A DNA stretch of 64,000 nucleotides from Bacteroidaceae bacterium (GTDB lineage: Bacteria; Bacillota_I; Bacilli_A; RFN20; CAG-826): assembly GCA_963624045.1 (NCBI GenBank), contig CAVFNI010000003.1:41022-105021 (forward strand). The letters are read 5' to 3'. This document shows positions 25,501-55,786 of this stretch, piece after piece; within the stretch, counting starts at the first letter, position 1; each line of letters begins with the position of its first letter. The notes below the pieces were generated by a model. That model was not told where the DNA came from. It saw nothing but the letters and a program-made list of their open reading frames with translations, and did not search any database. A program made the translations under genes and the position numbers.

Positions 25501-26913
25501 ATGACAGCCAAAAAAACCAAGAAAGAAGAATTAGTAGAAGAAGAGAAGAAAGTCGCAAGCGACGCCGAGGCAGAAGAGGATCTTTTTGATCTCGAAATCG
25601 AAGACGAGGAAGAAGACGAAGGCCTTATCAAAACTTTCGAAAACGTTAAAAAAGAGCTTTTGAGCAAAGCGAAAGCTAATGGCAATTCCATCACGCAAGA
25701 CGAAATCATGGACGCCCTTCAAAAATTCGATTATAGCGATGACGACTATGCCGGAATCATCACTTTCTTCCAAGAAAATAGCGTCAACGTCGAGTCCGAT
25801 GAGGAGGAGATGGCGTTAGACGAAGACGGCCCCACGGAAGCCGACTTGCTTAAGGACGAGGAGGACGAAGACGATTTAGACGACGTCGACGAAAGCGAGA
25901 AAGCGGAAATCGAGGACGTCGATGAATTCTCCAAAATTCAATCGGGCGAAGTTAAAGTAAACGATTCCGTCAAGATGTATTTGAAGGAAATCGGCAAAGT
26001 CAATTTGCTTAACGCCAAGCAAGAGACGGAACTCGCCATGCGCATCGCCGCGGGCGATAAAGCCAAAGCCGAGCTCGATAAGATCGTCGCTGGCGGTGAT
26101 GAAGCGGCCATTCGCGAAGCCAAATATCTCATCGCCGATGGCGGAGCGGCCAAAGATCAGCTTATCACTGCCAACCTTCGTTTGGTAATCGCCATCGCCA
26201 AGCATTATGTTGGACGTGGCATGCATTTCCTCGATCTCATACAAGAAGGAAATATGGGTCTCATCAAAGCGGTCGAAAAATTCGATTATACCAAAGGTTT
26301 CAAGTTCTCGACCTATGCGACTTGGTGGATTAGGCAAGCCATCACCCGCGCCATCGCCGACCAAGCTAGGACCATCCGCATCCCCGTCCATATGGTTGAG
26401 ACGATCAACAAGATGACGAGGATCCAACGCACGCTCGTGCAAGAACTCGGACGCGATCCGACGGCAGAGGAAATAAGCGAGAGGATGGATGGCGCCCTTT
26501 CCCCTGAAAGAATCAGGGAGATCCAACGCATCGCTTTGGAGCCTGTCTCTTTGGAAACGCCAATCGGCGAGGAAGATGATTCCCATTTGGGCGATTTCAT
26601 CGAAGACAAAGACGCCCAATCGCCCGAAGAATTCACCACCAAATCGTTACTTAAGGACGAATTGTATGACATCATGCGCGACCTTACCGACCGGGAAGAG
26701 AGGGTTTTGCGCCTTCGTTATGGCCTTGACGACAATCGTCCGCGGACTTTGGAGGAAGTTGGACGCGAATTCGGCGTCACCCGCGAACGTATCAGGCAAA
26801 TAGAAGCCAAGGCCATCAGGAAGCTTCGCCATCCGACGAGAGCCAAGCGTCTTGGCGATTATCGTGATTCCATCTATTTTAGTGGCCCCGAGACCCATAA
26901 CAAGGATCGTTGA
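25501..26913 (+). CDS. rpoD: Primary RNA polymerase sigma factor (SigA/RpoD)
   Basis: 470 aa. It has an acidic region 1.1, region 2 ([41 protein letters not shown]), region 3, and region 4.2 ([20 protein letters not shown]). Confidence 0.96.
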
Positions 26914-27989
26914 TGGAGAAAGAAGATAAAATCGCTTCCGCCGTCATGGAAGCAAGGAATAGTAGAAAAAAGAACGGCTATCTCGCCGTCGACGGCTTTT
27001 GGGATATCGCCGATCGCCATTCGTTATCGGAAAAAGAGGCGGAAGAGGCTCTTTTCCGTCTTTCGAAAGAGGGCATTAAGCCGCAGGTTCGCCTCGACGA
27101 AGGGCCAGTGAATAAAGCCGTCAACGACAGTTTGAGTTTTTATTATAGCCAAATGGGAAAATACCCCCTTTTGGACGAGGAGAAAATGGATGAATGTGCT
27201 AGAAAAGTCCGAGAAATCCCTCATTTGGAAGCGTCCTTGAAAGCCAATGGAGACGACCAAGAAACAAAACAAAAATTAGAAGAGGCGAAAAGAAGCAAGG
27301 ACGAAATGATTTTAGCTAATCTTCGTTTGGTCGTTTCCATCGCCAAAAAATACGGAGATTATGCGCATTCGACGCCTCTTATCGATCTCATCCAAGAAGG
27401 GAATATCGGTTTAGAGAAGGCGGTGAGCCGCTTTGACCCCGATAAAGGGGTTTGCTTTTCGACTTATGCTTATTATTGGATTAGACAATCGATCATCGGA
27501 TATCTCAACGGCGATTCTCGCCTAATCCATATACCGACTAGGGCTTTAAGCAATCTCCGCTTGGTTCAGAAAACGATCGATGAGCTTTCCCAAAACTTAG
27601 GAAGGGAGCCTTCGATTAACGAAATCTCATGCCAAAGTGGTCTCTCCATCGAGCAAATCTCCGAATGCCTATCCCTTCCTTTGAATCTGCTTTCCATCGA
27701 TGCCCCAATCGATCAAGATGGCGACGATTTCTCGTCATTCATCGCTTCGGACGATGAAGAGAAAAGCAAAAGCGAAATCGAGCGAAAAGAAGACGATATC
27801 GCGGTGCAAGACGCCATCAATTGTCTCACGGAGCGGGAAAAGGATATCGTTGTCCGTAATTTCGGCTTGAATGGCGGAGAGCCGGAAAGCCTAGAAGCGA
27901 TCGGAAAATCATATGGGATAACGCGGGAAAGGGCGCGGCAGATACGCGAAAAGGCGCTTATTAAAATGCGAAAAGGAATCAAAAGATGA
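26910..27989 (+). CDS. Second sigma-70 family factor with regions 1.2-4 (primary-like paralogue)
   Basis: 359 aa. Its start overlaps the rpoD stop (ATGA). It has region 1.2-like [18 protein letters not shown], region 2 ([37 protein letters not shown]) and region 4.2 ([19 protein letters not shown]). Confidence 0.8.
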
Positions 27990-28651: not shown

Positions 28652-29427
28652 AAACGGCTTCTTTGCTTAGGTCTTTAGCGGCATTCTATCCGGCTAAATT
28701 ACGCGAACCATACGATTACGGCGGGCTTATGGTCGGACATTACAAAGTAGAGACCCAACGCATTTTCCTGTCTTTGGATTTCGATCGGACCTTATTCGAT
28801 GAGGTTCTTTCCTTCAAACCAGATCTCATCATCACCCATCATCCCTTTTTCTTCGGAAAGAAGAAGGAAATCCTCGAAAGAGACGAAGAAAAGCGGGAAA
28901 GCTATGCGTTTTTGGAAAGAAATGACATCCCATTAAGCAGCTATCACACCAATTTCGACCGCGCCAAAGAAGGGATGAACGATGCCATCGCTTTAGCGCT
29001 AGGTTTGCAAAATGTCCGCGAACTAGAGGGCGATAATATGGCTAGGGGCGGCCTTTTGCCTTATGAGATGAATCAAAAAGAATTCGTTTTGTATGTTTTG
29101 AAAGCGTTATCGCTCCCTTATGGCACCTTTATTGGCGAAGGCAAAGAGAAGATAAGAAAAGTGGCCGTAATCGGCGGTGGCGGTTATAGAAGCGCTCTTA
29201 TTGCCAAGCAAGAAGGCTATGACGCCTTCATATCAGGCGATTGCCCACATCATGCAAGAAGGGAAATGATACTATCTCATTACAATTATCTAGATATACC
29301 GCATGAAGTCGAAGAAATATTTATTGACCAAATGACTAAAACTTTACTAAAAATAAACCAAAATTTAACTATTAAAGGCGTAAAGCACGAGCGACCGGCA
29401 ACTCTTTTTTATAACGATTCCAAATAG
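28648..29427 (+). CDS. Nif3-like dinuclear metal centre protein (YqfO family)
   Basis: 259 aa with DLIITHHPFFF and SYHTNFD metal-ligand motifs and a C-terminal GDCPHH. It follows trmK as in Bacillus. Confidence 0.85.
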   Translation: MKTASLLRSLAAFYPAKLREPYDYGGLMVGHYKVETQRIFLSLDFDRTLFDEVLSFKPDLIITHHPFFFGKKKEILERDEEKRESYAFLERNDIPLSSYHTNFDRAKEGMNDAIALALGLQNVRELEGDNMARGGLLPYEMNQKEFVLYVLKALSLPYGTFIGEGKEKIRKVAVIGGGGYRSALIAKQEGYDAFISGDCPHHARREMILSHYNYLDIPHEVEEIFIDQMTKTLLKINQNLTIKGVKHERPATLFYNDSK

Positions 29428-30275
29428 GCTTTCGATTTACGGACGTCCGCTTCGTCGGTCGAGGCGCCGCTAGATAAAAGGGCGTGATGATGACCAATAA
29501 GCGCCTTTTTATCGATATCGGTGGCGGATAGGACTAAAAATGCATCGATGCCTGGGAAAGCGCTTTTAGCGAGGTTAAGAAGCTCCTTGCTGTTATTGCT
29601 AGTGCGACTGCCAAGAATCACGACGAGGTCGATGCCTTCGCGTTTCTTTTGGATGCCTTCTTGTCTTTTTTGGGCATCGGGGCAACGCTTGGCTTGGATA
29701 CTCGCTTGGGGATCAATCGTCTTTATTTCTTCGATCGCTTCTTTGATTTTGCTTTGCGACACGGTCGTTTGGGAGAAGACGACTATCGACGTTCCGTCAG
29801 CATTCTTTTTGAAGGCGTCGACCCCCTCATATAAATGCACTTTGGGGCTTATCGACAGGGCGGAGATGGCTTCGGCATGGCCTTTTTTACCGATATAGTA
29901 GACTTCTTGCTCATTTTCGATCGCTTCTTTAATGCGTTTTTCGTTCAATTTGACGAAAGGGCAAGTGGCGTCATATACGATAAGGCCCTTAGCAGCGGCG
30001 ATTTCCTCGTATTCGGAAGGATGGCCGTGCGCCGAAAAGCAGATGACGCTGCCTTTTTCCAATTTCCAAAGCTCCTTTTTTATTGCCTTCTCATCGCCGT
30101 CAAGGAAGACGAATCCGCCTTTTTGAAGGCTGTCGGTCACTTTTTCATTATGAACGAGGGCCCCGATGAGATATATTGTTTCGGTGGGGTGTTTTTTCTT
30201 AGCGAGAAAAGCCGTTTGCAAGGCGCGTGTCACCCCGCCGCAGAATCCATATGGTTCGATGAGAGTGACTTTCAT
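29409..30275 (-). CDS. ispH: 4-hydroxy-3-methylbut-2-enyl diphosphate reductase (IspH/LytB)
   Basis: MKVTLIEPYGFCGGVTRA..., three-Cys pattern (GFCGG, ATCPFV, and C near KRCPDA) and SSNSKEL. I chose the start at 30275 (288 aa); in-frame alternatives are 30293 and 30389. No clear SD is visible. Confidence 0.88.
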   Translation of the reverse strand: MKVTLIEPYGFCGGVTRALQTAFLAKKKHPTETIYLIGALVHNEKVTDSLQKGGFVFLDGDEKAIKKELWKLEKGSVICFSAHGHPSEYEEIAAAKGLIVYDATCPFVKLNEKRIKEAIENEQEVYYIGKKGHAEAISALSISPKVHLYEGVDAFKKNADGTSIVVFSQTTVSQSKIKEAIEEIKTIDPQASIQAKRCPDAQKRQEGIQKKREGIDLVVILGSRTSNNSKELLNLAKSAFPGIDAFLVLSATDIDKKALIGHHHALLSSGASTDEADVRKSKAYLESL

Positions 30276-30338
30276 GGTTGCATTATCCGACATTATGGCC
30301 AAGAAGTAGAGAAGAAAGCGTCGGAAGGGAGCGAAAAA

Positions 30339-31682
30339 ATGAGTTTCAAGGAATTCGATTTGTCCGAAGAGATGGTTAACGCTTTGCAAAAACTAGGCTA
30401 CCTTAATCCTTCGGCCGTTCAAAGCGCTGTCATTCCCAAGGCGTTAAAAGGCCGTTCTTTGCTCGTTCAAAGTGAGACTGGAAGCGGCAAAACGCATGCT
30501 TTTTTGGTGCCCATCATCGAAAGAATCGACAAAAGCCTCGCCCGTCCTCAGGGGCTTATAATATCGCCGACGCGGGAGCTTGCCCGCCAAACTTACGAAT
30601 TCGCCAAAGCGTTCGAGCGTTTCTATCCGTCTTTTCGCGTTAGGCTATTTACTAGCGAAAACGACGTCAGCGATAACGCCGAAGGCTCGAAAAGGCCTCC
30701 ACAGCTTATTATCGGCACTCCCGGAAGGCTAAGAGACGTCATCATAACCCGTCAGCTTTATAGCGTTAGGAACGTCCGCTTCTTCGTTCTCGATGAGGCG
30801 GATATGCTCCTCGATATGGGTTTTTTCGAGGACGTCCAGATGATCGCGAGCGCCTTAAAAGAACCGCAGACGATGGTTTTTAGCGCCACTTTGAAGCCCA
30901 ATCTCAAAAGCGAGCTTGATAAATTCGTCGGCGCCAATTTCGAATTCGAAAGTGAAAAAACGGAGACGTCCGGCAATGTCGCTCACCATCTTGTCGACGT
31001 CAAGCACATGGGCACCGTCTCCGCCCTTTTGAAATTTTTGTCGATAAGACGTCCGTATTTGGCCATTGTTTTCGCTTCCACCGTCGAGAAGGTGGGGGAA
31101 ATCCATAAGGCCCTCAAAGAAAACGGAGTGGATGCCATCTATTACAGCGGCTCCCTTGATGAGCGCAGCCGCAAAAAGGCTTTGCGGGAAATCAAAGCGA
31201 ACAAGCATTCGCTCATCGTCTCGAGCGACTTGCTTTCCCGCGGCATCGATATTAGCGACGTCAGCGACGTCATATCCGTTGATTTGCCTAGCGACTTGGA
31301 GTTTTATCACCATCGCGCCGGCCGCACCGGCCGCTTCGGCAAAAGCGGAGATTCCTGGGTTTTCTACAATAGCGATTCCCTCTCTTTGCCGCAAAAACTC
31401 ATCGAAGAGGGTGTCGTTTTCGATTTTCTGACCCTTAATAAAGACGGCTTGAAAGTCGATCCGGTTGGGTTATTGCCCAAAACGAAGCTCAAGAAGAAAA
31501 AAGAATTGCCCGATGAGGAAATCAAAGAAATCAAGATAGCGAAGGCCCTCTCGCGCCCTAAGCACATCGAGCCGATGTATAAGAAAAAACGGCAATTTGC
31601 CATCGAGAAAGTCAAAAAGAAATACCGCAAAAAAGCCATCCGCAAGGCTATTAGAAAGAATCTGGCCAAGGGTAATGGCTAG
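30339..31682 (+). CDS. DEAD-box ATP-dependent RNA helicase with a Lys-rich C-terminal tail
   Basis: 447 aa from the ATG at 30339, with a GGAAGGGAG SD. Motifs: Q motif (F...LGYLNPSAVQ), SETGSGKTHAF, DEAD, SAT and HRAGRTGR. The ORF-track 5' extension to 29835 is antisense to ispH and is rejected. Confidence 0.9.
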   Translation: MSFKEFDLSEEMVNALQKLGYLNPSAVQSAVIPKALKGRSLLVQSETGSGKTHAFLVPIIERIDKSLARPQGLIISPTRELARQTYEFAKAFERFYPSFRVRLFTSENDVSDNAEGSKRPPQLIIGTPGRLRDVIITRQLYSVRNVRFFVLDEADMLLDMGFFEDVQMIASALKEPQTMVFSATLKPNLKSELDKFVGANFEFESEKTETSGNVAHHLVDVKHMGTVSALLKFLSIRRPYLAIVFASTVEKVGEIHKALKENGVDAIYYSGSLDERSRKKALREIKANKHSLIVSSDLLSRGIDISDVSDVISVDLPSDLEFYHHRAGRTGRFGKSGDSWVFYNSDSLSLPQKLIEEGVVFDFLTLNKDGLKVDPVGLLPKTKLKKKKELPDEEIKEIKIAKALSRPKHIEPMYKKKRQFAIEKVKKKYRKKAIRKAIRKNLAKGNG

Positions 31683-34705: not shown

Positions 34706-34939
34706 ATGCGTAAGAGAGTGTGAAATAGATAACGGTAACCCTTATTGGAAAGAAAAATACGGCAGTGGAATCATCTAAAAAACCATTTCTTCAATTTTAT
34801 CGCGGCTGACGATGTTTTTAGCGCCAAGCAAAAAAGTGTCAATGAAAAACATAGATAAAATCTAAGGAAAATTGTTATATTTTGAATGGCTATGAATTTT
34901 CCACAGAACATTTATAAAAACTAAAAAACTACTAAATAA

Positions 34940-35674
34940 CTACTTTTCCCATTTGAGGGGCTTCTCTTCTCCCGAATGGATTCTTCGGATGTTATCGGCA
35001 TGTCTTAATAGCAAGATCAGATAGACGAGGGATATCGCTATGAAGGATTCGTAACCGAAGGCGGCGCTTTCACCTAAGCCAAAAGACCAACTAAAGAAGG
35101 AGAAATCGAATTGCGGGGAAAGCAAAATCGAAAGGATGCTGAGGGCCCCTTCGAGCAATAGCAAAATCGCTCCGGTCCAAATGGACGCCTTGCTCATTAT
35201 GCGTTTGGTGATCTTGAATACGAGGAAGAAAATCAGGAAGCAAAACGGGAAAAGCAACCAGCTAGTTCCGCCGACCGAACCATAAAAGCAGGCGACGGCT
35301 TTTCCTCCCTTGCCTTTGAGATAGGGCGAGAAACAATGACCGAGACTAGCGAAGAATAGCGAGGACCAAACGTAAAAACGCCCTTCGCCCCATATCGGCA
35401 TCGCCCTCCTTAACCCCGAGAATTCGATGATGGCGTAAATGCTCCAAAAGACGGCGACGGTTTTAAGGATATCGAGCGCGATGACGATGATTCCCGCTTT
35501 CTTACCTAAAACGCGCCCGGCGTTGGTGCCGCCGGAATTATGGGAGCCGTATTCCAAAGGATTTTTGGCGAAGAAAACCTTGCCGATGACGACGGCCGTC
35601 GGGATTCCGCCGATAAGGAAAGAGAAAACGGCCACCGAAAGACCTAGTAGGATGTTCGCGAGGATGGGGTTCAT
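34940..35674 (-). CDS. plsY: Glycerol-3-phosphate acyltransferase PlsY
   Basis: 244 aa, multi-pass, with GSHNSGGTNAGR (the GSGNxGATN-type motif) and C-terminal HADNIRRIHSGEE. It is divergent from parE as in Bacillus (plsY-parE-parC). Confidence 0.88.
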   Translation of the reverse strand: MNPILANILLGLSVAVFSFLIGGIPTAVVIGKVFFAKNPLEYGSHNSGGTNAGRVLGKKAGIIVIALDILKTVAVFWSIYAIIEFSGLRRAMPIWGEGRFYVWSSLFFASLGHCFSPYLKGKGGKAVACFYGSVGGTSWLLFPFCFLIFFLVFKITKRIMSKASIWTGAILLLLEGALSILSILLSPQFDFSFFSWSFGLGESAAFGYESFIAISLVYLILLLRHADNIRRIHSGEEKPLKWEK

Positions 35675-35774: not shown

Positions 35775-37733
35775 ATGGACGATTTGCTAAACGAAGAAAA
35801 GAAATATTCGGCGAGCCAGATTGAAATCCTTTCCGAACTCGAGGGGGTGCGGAAACGTCCTGGCATGTATATCGGCTCGACGAACCTCACCGGACTTCAC
35901 CATCTGGTTTGGGAAGTGGTCGATAACGCCGTCGACGAGGCCGTCAACGGCTTTGGCAAGAAAATCACCGTGACTTTGCTTAAAGACGGCTCCGTCCAAG
36001 TCGAAGACGAAGGGCGCGGTATCCCCGTCGACATTCATCCGGAGGCTAAAATACCGGCTGTTCAGCTTATTTTCACCACTCTTCATAGCGGTGGTAAATT
36101 CAATAGCAAGGTCTATCAAACGGCCGCTGGGCTCCATGGCGTCGGCGCCACCGTCACGAACGCTTTAAGCGAATGGCTCGAAGTCACCGTTTGCCGTCAG
36201 GGCTCGATTTATCAGATCCGCTTCCATAACGGCGGCGAATTAGAGACCCCTTTGCATATCATCGGAGAAACTTCTAAACACGGTACGACCGTTCGTTTCA
36301 AACCCGATCCCAAGGTTTTCCCCAACACCAAATTCAGCTGGGACACCATTTATAACCGCCTTGAGGAGAAAAGCTACCTTCTTAAGGGCGTCCGTTTCAT
36401 CCTGAAAGAGCAAGCGTCGGGCAATTCTCACGAATTCTATACCGAGCGGGGCTTGTACGAATATGTCTCCTCCCTCACTCAGAACAAGACTCCGATGGGC
36501 GATATTATCGATTTTAACGACTCCTCTTCCCCAAGCGGCATCAAAGTCGAGTTGGCGATGAGGTGGTGCTCTCAGGATTATAACGAAAATATTTTCTCGT
36601 ACGCCAACGACGTTCGCACGGCCGATGGCGGAACCCACGAAAGCGGCTTCAAAGGCGCCCTTACCAAAGCCCTTAACGATTGGGCCCTAACTAGCGAAGT
36701 CATCCGTCCAAACCAATCGATCGACGGCGTCGACATCCGCGAAGGCCTGACGGCCATCCTTTCCGTCAAGGTGCCCGAAAGCAAATTGGAATACGAAGGG
36801 CAGACGAAAGGGAAACTCGGTACCCCCGAAGCCGGAACGGTGGTGGGCGACATCGTTTTCAAGAAACTCAGCTATTATTTTAACGAACATAAGGCTTTCG
36901 CCGTTGATTTGGTCAAGAAGTGCATGATGTCCAAAGACGCCAGAGAAGCGGCAAGGAAAGCGCGAGAAGCCGCTCGCGGCGCCAAAAAGAAGAACAACGA
37001 TCTGATTATCAGCGACAAATTGGCCAGCGCCCAATCCAAGGATTACATGGAAAACGAATTGTTCATCGTCGAAGGCGATTCGGCCGGAGGCAGCGCCAAA
37101 ACGGGACGCGACCGTCTGCACCAAGCCATTTTGCCATTGCGGGGAAAGCCTCTTAATACCGACAGCGTTTCGATGGAGAAAATCGTCGAGAACGTCGAAT
37201 TCAGCACCCTCATTCAAACCATCGGCGCAGGCGTGGGACAGGATTTCGATCCCGACGAGAGCCATTATGGGAAAATCATCATCATGACCGACGCCGATAC
37301 CGACGGCGCCCATATCCAAACATTGTTACTAACCTTCTTTTATAATTACATGAAACCTTTGATCGAAAGGGGCATGGTTTATATCGCCCAGCCTCCGCTT
37401 TATCGCGTTTATAAAAAAAGCGACCCTTCTAAGCATGTTTATTGTTGGAATGAAGACGAATTAGCGGCGGGAAAAGCCAAAATCGGCCCCGGATACGCCA
37501 TCGCCCGTTATAAAGGCTTAGGCGAAATGAACGCCGATCAACTGGCTCTCACGACGATGAATAAGAAAACCCGCGTTCTGACCCGCGTCGCCATCGACGA
37601 CCCCCTTTTGGTGGAGAAAAGAATCGGCACTTTGATGGGAAAGGACAGCTCCCTTAGATGGAATTGGATCAAAGAGAACGTGACTTTCAACGAGGAAGAT
37701 ACCTTCATGAAGGAAGTGCGCATCGGCAAATAA
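35775..37733 (+). CDS. parE: Type IIA topoisomerase subunit B, assigned ParE (topoisomerase IV) from context
   Basis: 652 aa with GHKL ATPase (GLHHLVWEVVDNAVDE, GLHGVGA) and TOPRIM (EGDSAGGSAK, DADTDGAHI). The ParE call rests on plsY adjacency and the terminus-proximal location rather than on sequence. Confidence 0.8.
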   Translation: MDDLLNEEKKYSASQIEILSELEGVRKRPGMYIGSTNLTGLHHLVWEVVDNAVDEAVNGFGKKITVTLLKDGSVQVEDEGRGIPVDIHPEAKIPAVQLIFTTLHSGGKFNSKVYQTAAGLHGVGATVTNALSEWLEVTVCRQGSIYQIRFHNGGELETPLHIIGETSKHGTTVRFKPDPKVFPNTKFSWDTIYNRLEEKSYLLKGVRFILKEQASGNSHEFYTERGLYEYVSSLTQNKTPMGDIIDFNDSSSPSGIKVELAMRWCSQDYNENIFSYANDVRTADGGTHESGFKGALTKALNDWALTSEVIRPNQSIDGVDIREGLTAILSVKVPESKLEYEGQTKGKLGTPEAGTVVGDIVFKKLSYYFNEHKAFAVDLVKKCMMSKDAREAARKAREAARGAKKKNNDLIISDKLASAQSKDYMENELFIVEGDSAGGSAKTGRDRLHQAILPLRGKPLNTDSVSMEKIVENVEFSTLIQTIGAGVGQDFDPDESHYGKIIIMTDADTDGAHIQTLLLTFFYNYMKPLIERGMVYIAQPPLYRVYKKSDPSKHVYCWNEDELAAGKAKIGPGYAIARYKGLGEMNADQLALTTMNKKTRVLTRVAIDDPLLVEKRIGTLMGKDSSLRWNWIKENVTFNEEDTFMKEVRIGK

Positions 37734-37736
37734 TAT

Positions 37737-40346
37737 ATGAAAAAGAAAAAGGAAGAGAAATCGGAAATAATCGAGAACATCGTCAAAGGGACGCTTGACG
37801 AATTGATGGGGGAGAAATACGCCATCTATGCCAAAGACGTCATCCAAGACCGCGCCATCCCCGATGCGCGCGATGGCCTTAAGCCCGTACAAAGACGCAT
37901 CGTTTTCGATATGTGGAAGAACGGCTATCTCATTAGCAAACCCACCACGAAATGCGCCCGCATCGTCGGGGATGTCATGGGTAAACTCCATCCGCATGGC
38001 GATTCTTCTATTTACGAGGCTTTGGTCCATATGTCGCAACCATGGGCCTATCGTTATCCCCTAATCGACTTCCAAGGCAATAACGGATCCATCGATGGCG
38101 ATGGCCCTGCGGCCATGCGTTACACCGAAGCGCGCCTAAGCGCTATTGCCGACGAACTCATCGCCGACATCGACAAGGACACCGTCGATATGGAACTTAC
38201 TTTCGACGATTCGCAACTTGAGCCCTCCGTCCTTCCCAGCCGCTTTCCCAATTTATTCGCCAACGGTAGCGAAGGCATCGCCGTCGGCGTTTCGACTTCC
38301 ATTCCTCCCCATAACCTCGGAGAGATTTCTAACGCCATCATCTACCGCATCAAACATCCGAAGTGCGGAATCGACGATTTGCTTCCTTTGGTTCCGGGCC
38401 CTGATTTCCCGACGGGTGGCATCATTTACGAATCGGAGTCGTTAAAGGACATTTATCGGACGGGGCGCGGCAAAGTGACGGTCAGCTCAAAAACGGAGAT
38501 CGTCGTATCTCCTAAAGGGGAAAAGCAAATAATCGTCAGCGCTATCCCTTATCAAGTCAATAAGAGCGCTTTGATTAAAAGCATTGCCAAAATCCGTCAT
38601 GACAAAACGATCCCTGGTATCGATGATGTGCGCGACGAGACCGATAAAAGCGGACTTCGCATCGCCATCGATTTGAAAAACGATGCCAAGCCCGAAGCGA
38701 TTTTGGCTTATCTCATGGCCAAAACGCAGCTTAAGACCAATTATACTGCCCACATGATGGCCATCGTCGATGATCGGCCCAAAACCCTCGATCTGCTTTC
38801 TTATTGCGATTGTTATATCCAACATCAGCTTGATGTCATCACTAGAAGAAGCCGTTTCCTTTTCGAACGTTCGAAGAACCGCTTCTCCATCGTAAGCGGC
38901 CTTATCAAAGCCGTTTCCATCCTCGACGAGGTCGTCAAGACGATCCGCAATAGTAGTGACAAAGCCGACGCCAAGAAGAATTTGGTTTCCGTCTTTTCCT
39001 TCACCGAGGATCAAGCCGAAGCCATCTTGATGATGCCGCTATACAAATTGTCCCATACCGACATCACCGTTTTGGAAAATGAAAAGCAAGCCCTTGAGGA
39101 GGAGATCAAAACTCTCGATGAGCTTTTGCATAGCCAAGAAAAGCGCGAAACCCTCATCGTAAGCGACCTTAAAGCCTTAGTGAAACGATATGGCGATGCC
39201 CGCAAAACCGAAGTGGTCGCCGAAGAGACGGAAATGGTAATCGATAAGCGCGATCTTATCGCCAAGGAAGCTTGCCGTCTAGTCGTCACCAAAGACGGAT
39301 ACCTTAAGCGCAGCTCTTTAAAGAGTTGGAAGGGCTCGGGTGGCCAAAACGGGGCCAAACCGGGCATAAAAAACGGCGACGTCTTCGTTTTCGAAGGCGA
39401 ATGCGAGACGACCGATTACGCCCTCATCTTTACTAACAAAGGGAATTATCTTTATATCCCGATCAACGAAATCAAGGAAGCCAAATGGAACGATGAAGGT
39501 TATCACGTCAACATTCTCGTGGGCGTCGATAGCAATGAAAAGATGGTCAAGGCCTTCGCCGTGCGCCATTTCCGTTCCGATCTTTATGTCATAATCGTCA
39601 CCAAAAACGGCGTCATTAAGCGCATCAGGCTCGATTCCTTCCCGGTTATCCGCCGCTCTAAGGCCCTTGGGGCCATCCGCCTTTCGAAGGACGACGAATT
39701 GCTTGATGTGGCCGTTGGCAGTGGCAATAGCAACCTTTTCATCGCTTCGAGCGATGGCAAAGCCGCCTTCTATAACGAAAACGACATCGCCATTTCCAAC
39801 CCAAAGACCGGCGGCCTTAAAGCGGGCTTATTCCATGGCAAAGAACTCGCCGGCCTTCTTTCTTTTGATCCTGAAGCCAACCCCAATTCGAAGATATTGT
39901 TGCTTACCGACCGCGGTGATACGCGCGTTTATATCCTTAAGAATACCCCGCTAGGAAAGAGGCTCGATAAGACGACCCTGCTATTTAGCAGCTTCAAGAA
40001 AGAACCGCATCGCTTGATCCATTTAATCAAAGCCGATGGCAAAGAGCCACCATTTAGCGTCGATGCCGTCTTGTCGGATGGCTCGCGTGTCGATGCCGTC
40101 TGGGAGGATTTTAACGCCACGCCCGTCGACTTATATGCCAAGCGAGGCGATTTCTTGTCCGCCAAAGCCAAAATCCAAACCTTCTCCGAAAGCGATTCTC
40201 CATTAATCGATGATTCCTTGCCTTCCTATCCTATCCGCGTGGAAGAAAAGGAAGACATCCAAGAAGAGGCATCTAAACCATCGCAAAGCAATTTCGAGCA
40301 GATATCCCTTTTTGACGAATTGATGGGGAACGACGAAGACAAATAA
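37737..40346 (+). CDS. parC: Type IIA topoisomerase subunit A, assigned ParC (topoisomerase IV) from context
   Basis: 869 aa with DGLKPVQRR and the catalytic Tyr context [11 protein letters not shown] saw no canonical GyrA box (QRRGGKG). It has an acidic C-terminal tail. Confidence 0.8.
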
Positions 40347-42343: not shown

Positions 42344-43405
42344 ATGGGACTTATCATCTTCGGCGGCAGCTTTGATCCGCTGCATAATGGCCATCTACGA
42401 ATCGCTAGGGCGGCGAAGGAAGAACTTTCCTCGCCCGTCGTTTTCGTTCCGGCCAAAAAGCCACGTTGGAAAGAAACGGAGGAAACCGAAGGCGATCGCC
42501 TAGCGATGTTGGAAGCCGCCATCATGGAAGAAAACGATCCGGCTTTTAGCATTTCTCGTTATGAGCTGGATAAAAACGACGGCGAAATAAGTTATACCAT
42601 CGACACCATCCGCCATTTTCGCTCTATTTACCAATATGAAGAGCTCTTTTTCCTAATGGGCGGCGATGAAGCCAACCGTTTTGGGAAATGGAAAGATGCC
42701 TTGGAATTATCGAGGCTTTGCCATATCGTTTATTCGCCACGTCCAAAAGTCCAAATAGACTTCGAAAACGTTGAAAAATATAACATGCATGGTCTTTCAT
42801 ATAGCGAATCGGGGGAAGTTTCTTCCAATGACGTCCGCTCTCTTCGGAGCGCTGATATTCCTATGTCGGTACTTCGCTATATCGAAGGCCATCGGCTTTA
42901 TTATGTGCGAAAAATCGAATCGTATATCGGCAGAAAACGGACTGACCATAGCCTTTCGGTGGCTCATTTATGCGAAGAGATCATCGAAAGCAACGGACTA
43001 ACTTCATTGAAGGGCAAAGGCTATATCGCCGGCGCCGTCCATGACATTGCCAAACACTTAAACGAAGAAGAGGGGAGAAAGGCGATGCTTAGAAGCTTTC
43101 CTGACATCGATTCATCGAAGATTCCTTCCTTCGCCGTTCATCAATATGCCGGCGTCAGTTTAGCCAAGGAGATTTTCGGCATCTATGATGCTGATATCCT
43201 AGACGCTATATCGGCGCATTGCCTAGCCAAAAAAGAGATGCGGCCTTTGGCGAAAATCCTATATTCGGCCGACAAAATCGAGCCGACGAGGGGATATGAT
43301 TCATCTAAATTAATCGAAGGATGCTTAAAAGATTATATTAAAGGATATGAAGGAGTTCGTCTTGCCAACGAAGAATTCTTAAAGAGCAAAGAGGGAGAAA
43401 AATGA
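42344..43405 (+). CDS. nadD: Fusion of nicotinate-nucleotide adenylyltransferase (NadD) and a YqeK-type HD phosphohydrolase
   Basis: 353 aa. The N-terminal half has GGSFDPLHNGH and ISYTIDT. The C-terminal half has an HD domain (RTDHSLSV ... AVHDIAKH ... SADKIEPTR). Confidence 0.85.
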   Translation: MGLIIFGGSFDPLHNGHLRIARAAKEELSSPVVFVPAKKPRWKETEETEGDRLAMLEAAIMEENDPAFSISRYELDKNDGEISYTIDTIRHFRSIYQYEELFFLMGGDEANRFGKWKDALELSRLCHIVYSPRPKVQIDFENVEKYNMHGLSYSESGEVSSNDVRSLRSADIPMSVLRYIEGHRLYYVRKIESYIGRKRTDHSLSVAHLCEEIIESNGLTSLKGKGYIAGAVHDIAKHLNEEEGRKAMLRSFPDIDSSKIPSFAVHQYAGVSLAKEIFGIYDADILDAISAHCLAKKEMRPLAKILYSADKIEPTRGYDSSKLIEGCLKDYIKGYEGVRLANEEFLKSKEGEK

Positions 43406-43719
43406 ATATAAGCGAAAGAATCATTGCCTTTTTAGAAGAAAAGAAAGCCGATGAGGTGACGGTCATTGATATGGAGGGACGTTCGCCTTTCTTTGATGAA
43501 ATCATCATCGCGACCGTTCCTAGCCTCCGTGCTTTAAGCGCTTATGCCGAAGAAGTGGAGGAAATTCTTGAAACATTGGGCGCTGAACGTCATAAAATCG
43601 AAGGAAACGAAGAATCGGAATGGGTTCTAGTCGACGGCGGGGACTTCGTTCTGCATTTGCTCACCAAAGAGAAGCGCGAGGAGCTTTCCTTAGAGAAGCT
43701 TATTGCAGCATCTAATTAA
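43402..43719 (+). CDS. rsfS: Ribosome silencing factor RsfS
   Basis: 105 aa with the RsfS pattern (FFDEIIIATVPSLRALSAYAEEV ... WVLVDGGDFVLHL). It is last in the yqe cluster. Confidence 0.9.
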   Translation: MNISERIIAFLEEKKADEVTVIDMEGRSPFFDEIIIATVPSLRALSAYAEEVEEILETLGAERHKIEGNEESEWVLVDGGDFVLHLLTKEKREELSLEKLIAASN

Positions 43720-43734
43720 TTTTATGCGATTTGT

Positions 43735-43763
43735 AAAGGATGGCTAACGGCCATCCTTTTTTT
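43735..43763 (+). terminator. Strong rho-independent terminator after rsfS
   Basis: A perfect 10-bp stem, AAAGGATGGC / GCCATCCTTT, with a 5-nt loop; the T-run continues as TTTT. Confidence 0.85.
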
Positions 43764-43969
43764 CTTCCTGATTGCGCTATTTATATTCGATCAAAAAAGA
43801 CAACGAAAATACATTGACGTATTTTTCTCATTTTATCATAAAGAGGCATTGAGATATTGAAACTTCATTCAGCAAGAAGCGGTGCATAAGAGATAATGAA
43901 TCTAAATATAGATTTTATAAAACTACCAATTATTTTTTTGGCACCGCTGATTTATATAATTTTACAATA

Positions 43970-43997
43970 ACTTCGTATAATGTCCATTATGTTAACT
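43970..43997. other. dif: dif-like XerC/XerD chromosome dimer resolution site
   Basis: ACTTCGTATAA-TGTCCA-TTATGTTAACT. Against B. subtilis dif (ACTTCCTAGAA-TATATA-TTATGTAAACT) the arms match 9/11 and 10/11. Against the E. coli dif XerD arm (TTATGTTAAAT) the match is 10/11. It lies in the convergent, AT-rich gap where coding-strand polarity flips. Confidence 0.7.
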
Positions 43998-44323
43998 AAA
44001 ATTAAATAAAAAGCGATTATTACGAAATTTTATTTTTTATAATTCATTGAATTTTTACATTATTAATAGTAATTAACATAGATTTTGCACATTTTTTAAA
44101 ACTACTAATTTTCGACTTATTTTTATTTTTGTCTCAAGGAATATTCTTTTGATCTAATTCATTCGGAAAAGAATCTAAATATCGATGGCACAATTTTATA
44201 TTTGCTTAATTCATTGCTTTTATTGACTTAATATAAGCGCATCAAATTACCAGATTAATCACTTCCATAAACAAATTCTAAAAGGATTTTTAGGTATGTA
44301 TCATTTCAATTTATTCTTTACAA

Positions 44324-45148
44324 TTAATTGTTTATTTTTTTGTGGACCGCTTTCGAGATCGCCAGATTTATTAAATCAATGAGCAAAACAAACAAGACGG
44401 CGATGAGAGAATAAGCCATCGCCAGATTCAAATCAGCTTTTTCTTGGATCGATTTACCGATAAGCGTTCCAAGCCCCATCGCCGTAACCGTCCCCGAATT
44501 GGTCACGATCTCACTCATGATGGTCACCTTTAAAGAAAGCCCGAAAGCCTGCTTTAACGACATCAGAATGAATTCTTGGGAATCGGGCCAATAGACATTA
44601 AAAATTGTAAAGATTTTCTTTTCTGCCCCTTCTAGCCTTAAAGCGTCTTTCTCCTCCTTCGAAATGGCGGATATGCCATCAAGGAAGGCTTGGTAGAAAA
44701 TCGGAAAGGCGATTAAAAAAGAAAGAATCGACGGAATAAAGGGTTGTAAAGCCGGTATTTCTAGCCAAAACGCCGTGCCTAAGATCATGGCGATCCCGGC
44801 CGTCGGAACGCTTCTAAAAAGGATGACATGGCTTCGTTCGAAGGCTTCGAACAAAGGAAAAATGGCCGCCAACGTGCCTAGAATGGCCGCCAAAAGGAAA
44901 GAGATTACGAAGCCGATTGTGAGTTTTAAAAGGCTATATCCGAGGGCTATGAAGGTTTTTCTTGCATCATCGGCGAAAAGCAATGACCACGTTTTCGACA
45001 AAATCGTCGATGGCGATGGCAAATAATGAAGGTCATTGGCTTTTAGGGCGATCGATAATACCCACCAGAGCAGGATCACGAAAAAGAAACCCAAGAGAAA
45101 AGCGAGCGCTTTCTCGATTGGATTCCCCTTCTTTTTCATTTTATTCAA
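44324..45148 (-). CDS. ABC transporter permease (binding-protein-dependent inner membrane component)
   Basis: 274 aa, about 6 TM segments, and an EAA-like loop (ISKEEKDALRLEGAEKKIFTIFNVYWP). Confidence 0.8.
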   Translation of the reverse strand: MNKMKKKGNPIEKALAFLLGFFFVILLWWVLSIALKANDLHYLPSPSTILSKTWSLLFADDARKTFIALGYSLLKLTIGFVISFLLAAILGTLAAIFPLFEAFERSHVILFRSVPTAGIAMILGTAFWLEIPALQPFIPSILSFLIAFPIFYQAFLDGISAISKEEKDALRLEGAEKKIFTIFNVYWPDSQEFILMSLKQAFGLSLKVTIMSEIVTNSGTVTAMGLGTLIGKSIQEKADLNLAMAYSLIAVLFVLLIDLINLAISKAVHKKINN

Positions 45149-47403: not shown

Positions 47404-48294
47404 TTATTTGCCTTTGTTATACAAATCATATGCGCTGATGATGCGGTTAAGGGAAACTTCGGTATAAATCTGCGTGGTGGTTATTTTGCTGTGCCCTAAA
47501 AGCTCTTGCACGCTCCTAAGGTCAGCCCCTTTCTCCAACAGATGGGTGGCGAAGCTATGTCTTAAGGCGTGCGGCGAAATCGGCTTATCGATATAGGCCA
47601 TCGTGGCGTATTTTTTGACCATTTTGAAGAAATAGACGCGCGAAAGCCTTTCGCCTCGGTGGTTTAAAAAGAGATACGGGGAGGAAGAGCCTTTGTTTCT
47701 TTTTCTGGCTCCGTCGATGTATTTTTGAAGGTATTTGTCCGCGAAGGAGGAATAAGGGACGACCCTTTCCTTATCGCCTTTGCCTCGGACGTCGATATAG
47801 CGATTGGCAAAATCGAAGTCCTTGAAGCGAAGGGAAAGGAGTTCGCTGACACGGAGGCCGCTGGCGTAGATAAGTTCTAACATCGCTTTGTCCCTCATCC
47901 CCGCATCGGTCGATAGGTCGGGGGCTTCTAAAAGGTCTTCGACCTCCTCTTTGCTAAGGACGTTGGGGATTTTCTTCGAATGACGAGGCTTCTCGTAATC
48001 TGGTAATTCCCCTTGATAATATCCTTCGTTCTGCAAGAACCTATAAAAGCCTAGAAGCGAGGAGGCGCGCCGCAAAATCGTGGAGGAGGCCCTCTCTTTA
48101 TCGTCTTCGTTTAAAAGAAAAGAGATCAGCATCTCTTTGGTCAGGTCGCTGCTGTTATGCAATTGACCGCGATGGAAAGACAAAAAAAGCTTGAGATCCT
48201 CTTTATAGCTCTCGATCGTGAGGGGGGATGAGCCGTCTTCGACCCGCTTGGCCCCGAGATATAAGCTCACGGCTTTATCGATTGCGATGTCCAT
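47404..48294 (-). CDS. xerD: Tyrosine recombinase XerD-like (XerC versus XerD not resolvable by eye)
   Basis: 296 aa with an N-terminal SAM-like core-binding domain, catalytic R...HALRHSFATHLL...LGHSKITTTQIYT. It lies 3.4 kb from the dif-like site. Confidence 0.85.
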   Translation of the reverse strand: MDIAIDKAVSLYLGAKRVEDGSSPLTIESYKEDLKLFLSFHRGQLHNSSDLTKEMLISFLLNEDDKERASSTILRRASSLLGFYRFLQNEGYYQGELPDYEKPRHSKKIPNVLSKEEVEDLLEAPDLSTDAGMRDKAMLELIYASGLRVSELLSLRFKDFDFANRYIDVRGKGDKERVVPYSSFADKYLQKYIDGARKRNKGSSSPYLFLNHRGERLSRVYFFKMVKKYATMAYIDKPISPHALRHSFATHLLEKGADLRSVQELLGHSKITTTQIYTEVSLNRIISAYDLYNKGK

Positions 48295-55721: not shown

Positions 55722-55786
55722 TTTTTATCTCCTTTGGTATTTATTTAGTAGTTAATTAGTAATAACTAAAATTTATATTGTTTCGA

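Follow-up and report, generated by a model that had tools for sequence, protein, structure and literature searches.

The gap and its flanking gene blocks

Two blocks of genes converge on an AT-rich, non-coding gap of 604 bp (positions 43720–44323) in the DNA analysed here, a stretch of 64 kb that is called the window below. The question was what this gap represents in the chromosome that carries it. A reading of the sequence alone (the sequence-only reading) had placed a probable replication terminus in the gap, around a 28-bp dif-like site, and its claims were re-examined computationally. The best explanation, to which we assign a probability of about 0.8 from sequence comparison, is that an uncultured, gut-type Bacilli bacterium (RF39-like) has its chromosomal dif site at positions 43970–43997, where the two replichores meet. 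RF39-like Bacilli is what we take the clade to be, as homologues in it carry the labels Bacillota bacterium, Bacilli bacterium and Candidatus Enteromonas. Identical or near-identical proteins were found on MAG contigs of 170 kb (GCA_963643055.1) and 117 kb (GCA_963614415.1) and also on Logan contigs. The loci compared are referred to by L numbers.

The gap is bordered by rsfS (43402–43719, + strand) and an ABC-permease-like gene (44324–45148, − strand). It had been described as visibly AT-rich and free of any ORF of 60 aa or more; the longest ORF was found to be 28 aa, and the GC content was 0.22 within 150 bp either side of dif, compared with 0.46 in the flanks. An intrinsic terminator hairpin follows rsfS at 43735–43759 on the + strand and ends the left operon. 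Neither an Rfam family nor a tRNA was found in the gap, the sole Rfam match being far below threshold and overlapping the rsfS terminator. In addition, a −35-box-like sequence, TTGACTTAATAT, lies at 44219–44235, approximately 250 bp to the right of dif, and points towards the 3′ end of the permease gene. L103 shares it and L006 does so in part; the sequence might act as the promoter of an antisense or small RNA.

In the left block, the + strand order is fmt, lepA, hrcA-grpE-dnaK-dnaJ, era, recO, dnaG, sigA and, further on, efp, parE and parC, after which yqeG, yqeH, yhbY, nadD-yqeK and rsfS lead up to dif. The right block begins with the permease gene and continues with a gene for a 342-aa protein, deoB, the xerD-like gene, dinB, dxs, xseB and xseA; its distal part holds nusB, asp23, tkt, aspS, hisS, relA, recJ and one more gene. 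A mechanical count placed 37 of the 45 ORFs left of the gap on the + strand. After the small spurious ORFs were removed, the only real − strand genes on the left were those for GT2, IspH, IspG and PlsY, and the polarity originally counted (40 of 44 on the + strand to the left, with these four exceptions, and 16 of 16 on the − strand to the right) was upheld.

Some features of the left block deserve mention in their own right. The nadD and yqeK genes form one fused ORF of 353 aa (42344–43405), with homologues of 343–381 aa throughout the clade that likewise contain both domains. Tandem sigma-70-family genes follow dnaG, namely sigA (25501–26913) and a 359-aa paralogue with regions 2–4 (26910–27989). 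The longest ORFs of ispH (29409–30389, − strand) and a DEAD-box helicase gene (29835–31682, + strand) overlap by approximately 550 bp. However, the family matches begin at residue 36–40 of IspH and at residue ~168 of the helicase, inside both ORFs. Both genes thus begin further downstream than their longest ORFs suggest, and the overlap is not real.

The junction was also checked in other assemblies. It is spanned by three independent assemblies of the species (L001, L002 and L003) and by all syntenic relatives. Therefore, the junction is not a misassembly.

A dif-type site and its conservation

The 28-bp sequence was found again exactly where it had been reported, at 43970–43997 on the + strand, and reads ACTTCGTATAATGTCCATTATGTTAACT in the 11-6-11 layout. 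It consists of a left arm of the XerC/CodV type (43970–43980, ACTTCGTATAA), a central region of 6 bp (43981–43986, TGTCCA) and a right arm of the XerD/RipX type (43987–43997, TTATGTTAACT). The 28-mer shows imperfect symmetry, as it is a dyad with inner TATAA and TTATG halves and asymmetric outer halves. When the window was searched at up to 3 mismatches, ACTTCGTATAATGTCCATTATGTTAACT was present in a single copy. In the case of the B. subtilis dif arms, for which the published sequence was used (PMC3025954), the query gave one match in the window with 3 mismatches, corresponding to 19 of the 22 arm positions. The reported arm matches of 9/11 and 10/11 were thereby reproduced, and none of 100 shuffles matched the B. 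subtilis arms as well. Direct comparison with E. coli dif likewise gave the 10/11 match to the XerD arm that had been claimed, with 7/11 for the left arm. No XerD-only half-sites were found close to dif, and none of the loci examined had a second dif-like site within ~10 kb of dif on either side.

The orthologous intergenic region was then aligned between relatives. In L006, which has the same gap and the same gene order, all 28 bp are identical, while the gaps outside dif are only ~45–50% identical and the flank proteins are 58–88% identical (62% for NadD-YqeK). The longest string common to the two gaps is an exact match of 30 nt that covers dif; in shuffled gaps, the mean was 10.8 nt and the maximum was 15 nt. 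The gap length of 550–615 bp is kept in relatives. Moreover, the synteny from ispG to nusB is kept in the more distant L103, L104 and L105 (NadD 47–50% identical, GC 0.40–0.55), which carry the variants ACTTCGCATAATGTCCATTATGTTAATT, ACTGCGCATAATGTCCATTATGTAAACA and ACTTCGTATAATGTCCATTATGTTAAGT, respectively, in the same gap. The TGTCCA centre is invariant among these variants, and changes occur in the arms alone, mainly at outer positions, leaving a core of CATAA/TATAA-TGTCCA-TTATGT. There is one dif site per locus in L006 and in L103–L105. By sequence comparison, the site stands out as a strong phylogenetic footprint.

To these relatives can be added the metagenome contigs that share both arms with any 6-bp centre. 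There were 96 of them, with one copy in each, and the flanks of their sites ranged from AT-rich to 65% GC. Their centres were of kinds common in dif sites, the most frequent being TATATA (30 contigs), followed by TTAATA and TGTATA. Context statistics were obtained for the 37 loci with enough flank, where the ORFs were convergent in 25 and divergent in none. Read from left to right, the GC skew changed from positive to negative across the site in 23 loci and in the opposite direction in 6, of which 4 belong to the window's own species. No viral contig with the arms was found, and an origin from a phage or IMEX was rejected because the arms are absent from viral contigs. Single copy, convergence, a skew switch and no viral contig are the behaviour that would be expected of a chromosomal dif.

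Recombinase, topoisomerase IV and known Xer systems

The sequence-only reading had also pointed to a XerD-like gene 3.4 kb from the site. This gene (47404–48294, − strand) encodes a tyrosine recombinase of 296 aa, the presumed enzyme of the right arm, and profile scores agreed with the earlier assignment. The protein scored 309 bits with TIGR02225 (XerD) and 276 bits with XerC, exceeded the PRK00283 cut-off, and reached 125 bits with the XerS model, whose cut-off is 267. Its best PDB match was E. coli XerD (9e-49), and the C-terminal motifs are conserved. In the alignment, the QQ and RQ of E. coli XerD are replaced by ER and RV; the placement of the FtsK-contact residues at this QQ and RQ is our own assumption. 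With ER and RV in these positions, direct activation by FtsK is doubtful, as the RQ-QQ residues of XerD are needed for the FtsK interaction (PMC5357621). No second recombinase of the XerC type was found within the 64-kb window.

The proximity of these genes to dif needs to be read with care. The deoB-xerD pair lies 1–5 kb from the site in L006, L009, L018, L057, L059, L078, L081 and L103–L106. In B. subtilis, deoB and ripX are adjacent as well. In the survey of Kono et al., xerD genes were mostly far from dif (PMC3025954). As xerD is usually distant and the gene pair is shared with B. subtilis, the linkage between xerD and dif is read as clade synteny. Similarly, the parE and parC genes of a Gram-positive-type topoisomerase IV (35775–40346, + strand) form a conserved left flank. 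Their proximity on the left, as previously described, is real and conserved in the clade, but parC ends 3.6 kb from the site and not 3.4 kb. Accordingly, the nearness of XerD and topoisomerase IV to dif is best read as conserved synteny, not as independent proof.

If the site is a dif, two Xer-family tyrosine recombinases would bind its 11-bp arms. The XerD/RipX-like enzyme, whose gene lies 3.4 kb away, would occupy the right arm, and a partner, probably CodV/XerC-like and encoded outside the window, would occupy the left. Cleavage and strand exchange across TGTCCA would then convert chromosome dimers to monomers at division. Dependence on a translocase and a position opposite oriC would be anticipated for such a site.

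The CodV/RipX system at B. subtilis dif is closely similar, with 28 bp, the 11-6-11 layout, arms matching at 9/11 and 10/11, a more conserved right arm, a XerD/RipX-like recombinase and, probably, a location at the replichore junction. The plsY-parE-parC neighbourhood is close to dif in B. subtilis too. The two differ in the centre, which is TATATA in B. subtilis and TGTCCA in the window, and in the window's xerD-like gene 3.4 kb away and a box-plus-repeat module on the XerD side, described below. E. coli dif with XerCD and FtsK shares the layout, the 10/11 XerD arm and, in XerD, the nearest solved recombinase, whereas the left arm is matched at 7/11 only and QQ/RQ stand against ER/RV.

In the XerS/difSL system of streptococci and lactococci, the recombinase gene is likewise linked to its site. 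However, difSL measures 31 bp, of which the centre takes 11 bp, and it lies directly beside xerS (356 aa) (PMC5357621). The window site has a 6-bp centre, an enzyme of 296 aa that is XerD-like, and three genes between gene and site; both the centre size and the XerS score (125 bits against 267) set it apart from a XerS/difSL module. Finally, positions 43967–43983, ATAACTTCGTATAATGT, are identical to loxP of phage P1 over its initial 17 nt, which comprise one arm and 4 nt of the spacer. The other loxP arm is missing, and the layout is 11-6-11 where loxP has 13-8-13. This match is probably a half-site resemblance between targets of tyrosine recombinases.

A conserved module beside the site

The dif site itself is an ordinary, textbook feature. 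It is the flanking module, not dif, that deserves the attention of specialists. To the right of dif, a DnaA-box-like 9-mer, TTTTGCACA, lies at 44083–44091 on the + strand, 113 bp from the dif start and about 85 bp past the right arm, and matches TTATCCACA at 7 of 9 positions. In 12 lineages, a 9-mer with 0–1 mismatches was found at +107 to +118, among them a perfect TTATCCACA in L059, L062, L073 and L081. It is followed by a CTACTAA unit, AAACTACTAATTTT, at 44099–44112 on the + strand, 130 bp from the dif start. The repeat unit is (A/T)ACTACTAA, occurring in one or two copies at +128 to +156 with an 11-bp period; many relatives have a tandem CTACTAA pair there. On the + strand, NTACTA was present in the +120 to +159 bin in all 17 lineage representatives, while other 40-bp bins gave 0–5.

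Both elements lie to the right of dif and on the same strand in every lineage of the syntenic clade (17/17), namely in the window and in L006, L018, L039, L041, L046, L057, L059, L062, L073, L078, L081, L087, L091 and L103–L105. The distance between module and dif is constant in lineages from 25% to 55% GC. In contrast, the adjoining gene varies by lineage and may be an ABC permease, PemK-like, Crp-like or membrane protein gene. Since the adjoining gene varies while the offset stays, the module travels with dif and not with a gene. To the left, a degenerate CTACTAA unit, AAACTACCAATTAT, was found at 43920–43933 on the + strand, 50 bp from dif, and left-side units at −36 to −47 are also present in L006, L059, L062 and L104.

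The same motifs were detected away from dif. A second composite copy at 34897–34945 on the + strand (TTTTCCACA, 22 nt, ACTACTAAAT-AACTAC) abuts the plsY stop codon; L006, L104 and L105 have kept it in this place. Tandem units without a box, TTACTAATT-AACTACTAAAT, lie at 55741–55762 on the − strand between aspS and tkt, with the ribosome-binding site of tkt following after approximately 20 nt. In relatives, arrays of 2–5 units occur in the parC-yqeG interval (L062, L067 and L078) and directly after dif (L008). As the plsY, tkt and parC-yqeG copies lie away from dif, a factor binding the motifs is probably not specific to dif.

Two side observations concern the same motifs. The repeat contains, or borders on, the stop codon of a − strand gene in several lineages. 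Moreover, L018, L039, L041, L043, L067 and L093, which form one subclade, carry a DnaA-box-like tandem TTTTCCACATTTTCCACA at −49 to −30, which pairs with an upstream GTGGAAAA as a weak hairpin.

Several functions were considered for the repeats and set aside. A KOPS/SRS-like polarity of ACTACTA was rejected because there are only 4 copies, 2 of them pointing the wrong way. CTACTAA repeats resemble the RTP Ter consensus; a polar fork trap of the Ter type was nevertheless weakened by copies left of dif in both orientations in relatives. A promoter reading failed for want of a convincing −35/−10 pair.

The strongest alternative enlarges the explanation rather than replacing it. Here, dif would be the core of a nucleoprotein module of ~190 bp, in which the box, together with CTACTAA repeats in helical phase, would attract DnaA and/or another DNA-binding protein that shapes or controls Xer recombination or fork fusion. 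This accessory-DNA reading refines the dif explanation without excluding it, and we hold it tentatively, as an idea that is rather unlikely but worth stating. It draws on the box and repeats, fixed in distance and orientation in 17 of 17 lineages beside a variable neighbouring gene, and on the 11-bp period, which suggests binding on the same face. The ER/RV residues of the XerD-like protein, where E. coli XerD has QQ/RQ, point the same way. In B. subtilis, SftA and SpoIIIE are not direct activators of CodV/RipX, and the activation of Xer recombination in Firmicutes is an open question (PMC5357621). Against it, the motifs also stand just after plsY, ahead of tkt and, in relatives, between parC and yqeG, so the factor may be a general one.

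The nearest precedent is found in the plasmid sites cer and psi, where an Xer core is accompanied by conserved protein-binding DNA ~100 bp away at a fixed distance, as may be the case here. Regulators of the ArcA type bind direct repeats with an 11-bp period. However, the accessory sequences of cer and psi (~180 bp, acting with PepA and ArgR or ArcA) lie on the XerC side, whereas the window's module lies on the XerD side, which also speaks against the accessory-DNA reading. The window site further differs in being chromosomal, in having other motifs and in sharing these with places elsewhere, and no ARG box was found in its module. If the reading were true, a chromosomal dif would depend on accessory DNA, and the initiator protein could be tied to events at the terminus.

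Replication terminus and skew

Whether the dif site coincides with the replication terminus has to be considered separately. We judge it likely that the terminus lies at the dif gap. This reading follows from the gene polarity, from dif itself and from the sign change of GC skew at dif in relatives. An improbable alternative is that the Xer site is genuine but the gap is a mere boundary between convergent operons, with the terminus elsewhere. In favour of that alternative, the cumulative GC skew within the window had no extremum at 44 kb, and the + strand GC skew went from about 0 to +0.06 across the gap, which is a non-canonical polarity. The AT skew flipped at the gap within the window. At 4-fold sites, the AT skew differed between the blocks (P = 0.001), and the third-position GC skew of the right block (−0.335) was similar to that of the few − strand genes of the left block (−0.379), compared with −0.231 for the + strand genes of the left block; both observations were counted toward a terminus elsewhere.

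On the other hand, the coding-strand GC skew at 4-fold sites was −0.37 in the left block and −0.39 in the right block, a difference that was not significant. As the coding strands are equally C-rich at these sites, codon bias swamps any replication signal, and the non-canonical GC skew of the window is attributed to this C-ending codon bias, which is equally strong on both sides. Moreover, gene orientation and skew are confounded because nearly all genes are co-oriented, with 3–4 head-on genes. The pooled intergenic skew was +0.025 on the left and −0.061 on the right, which is the canonical direction but not significant, as intergenic DNA is scarce.

Further evidence against a terminus elsewhere comes from the polarity switch (40/44 versus 16/16), which is typical of replichore junctions in Bacilli, and from relatives. 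In relatives with 55% GC, the skew was negative and then positive across dif, whereas it was positive and then negative in those with 25–40% GC; in all of these relatives, the sign switch was located exactly at dif. In Firmicutes, the distance between a predicted dif site and the skew shift point amounts to no more than a few percent of the genome length (PMC3025954). In two scaffolds of ~1 Mb, dif was located at 29% and 68% of the length, though scaffold start points are arbitrary. As a separate observation, the bulk GC-skew polarity at dif flips with genomic GC when the window is compared with L103 and L104 (0.55) and with L105 and L078 (0.32–0.40). The sign of GC skew is an unsafe guide to the leading strand in this clade.

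With the terminus placed at dif, the site marks the likely replichore junction and dimer-resolution site of an uncultured Bacilli lineage with a reduced genome. It may be used for closing MAGs, orienting contigs, estimating growth rates from coverage and spotting elements that integrate at dif.

Origin and chance readings

A further alternative is that the gap is an origin, or an origin-like unwinding element, in which the box, the DnaA-trio-like CTA-CTA and the AT-rich DNA are the functional parts and the dif-like sequence is there by chance. The window, L006, L103 and L104 do have the box, 9–11 nt and then CTA CTA ATT on the same strand. This pattern in AT-rich DNA satisfies a lenient search rule of box, spacer and (NAN)x3 (PMC8287927). 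Nevertheless, the local pattern is only loosely that of a basal unwinding region and occurs so in four lineages, and such a region of oriC would combine a DnaA box, a spacer of at most 16 nt, at least 3 trios and AT-rich DNA with a position where genes and skew diverge. With convergent genes, an origin here would leave ~95% of them head-on to the forks. Only one box is present, with neither dnaA nor dnaN. The 11-bp period breaks the 3-nt register of the trios, and the spacing is 19–31 nt in about half of the lineages, compared with a limit of 16 nt. The same composite is found at the plsY 3′ end as well. An origin is therefore a very improbable reading of the gap.

The weakest alternative, a chance resemblance in an AT-rich spacer or an attachment scar of a mobile element, could appeal to the many partial matches that AT-rich DNA gives and to several contigs that break close to the site, but its probability is negligible in view of the shuffles, the perfect conservation across species, the lack of a second dif-like site within ~10 kb in any locus, and the lack of mobile-element genes and viral matches.

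The contig breaks lie within a few hundred bp of dif in the assemblies L004, L005, L007, L041, L059 and L081. In L081, a locus cut from a 228-kb contig, dif lies 249 bp short of the locus end. These breaks may reflect poor coverage of AT-rich DNA or variation between strains beside dif.
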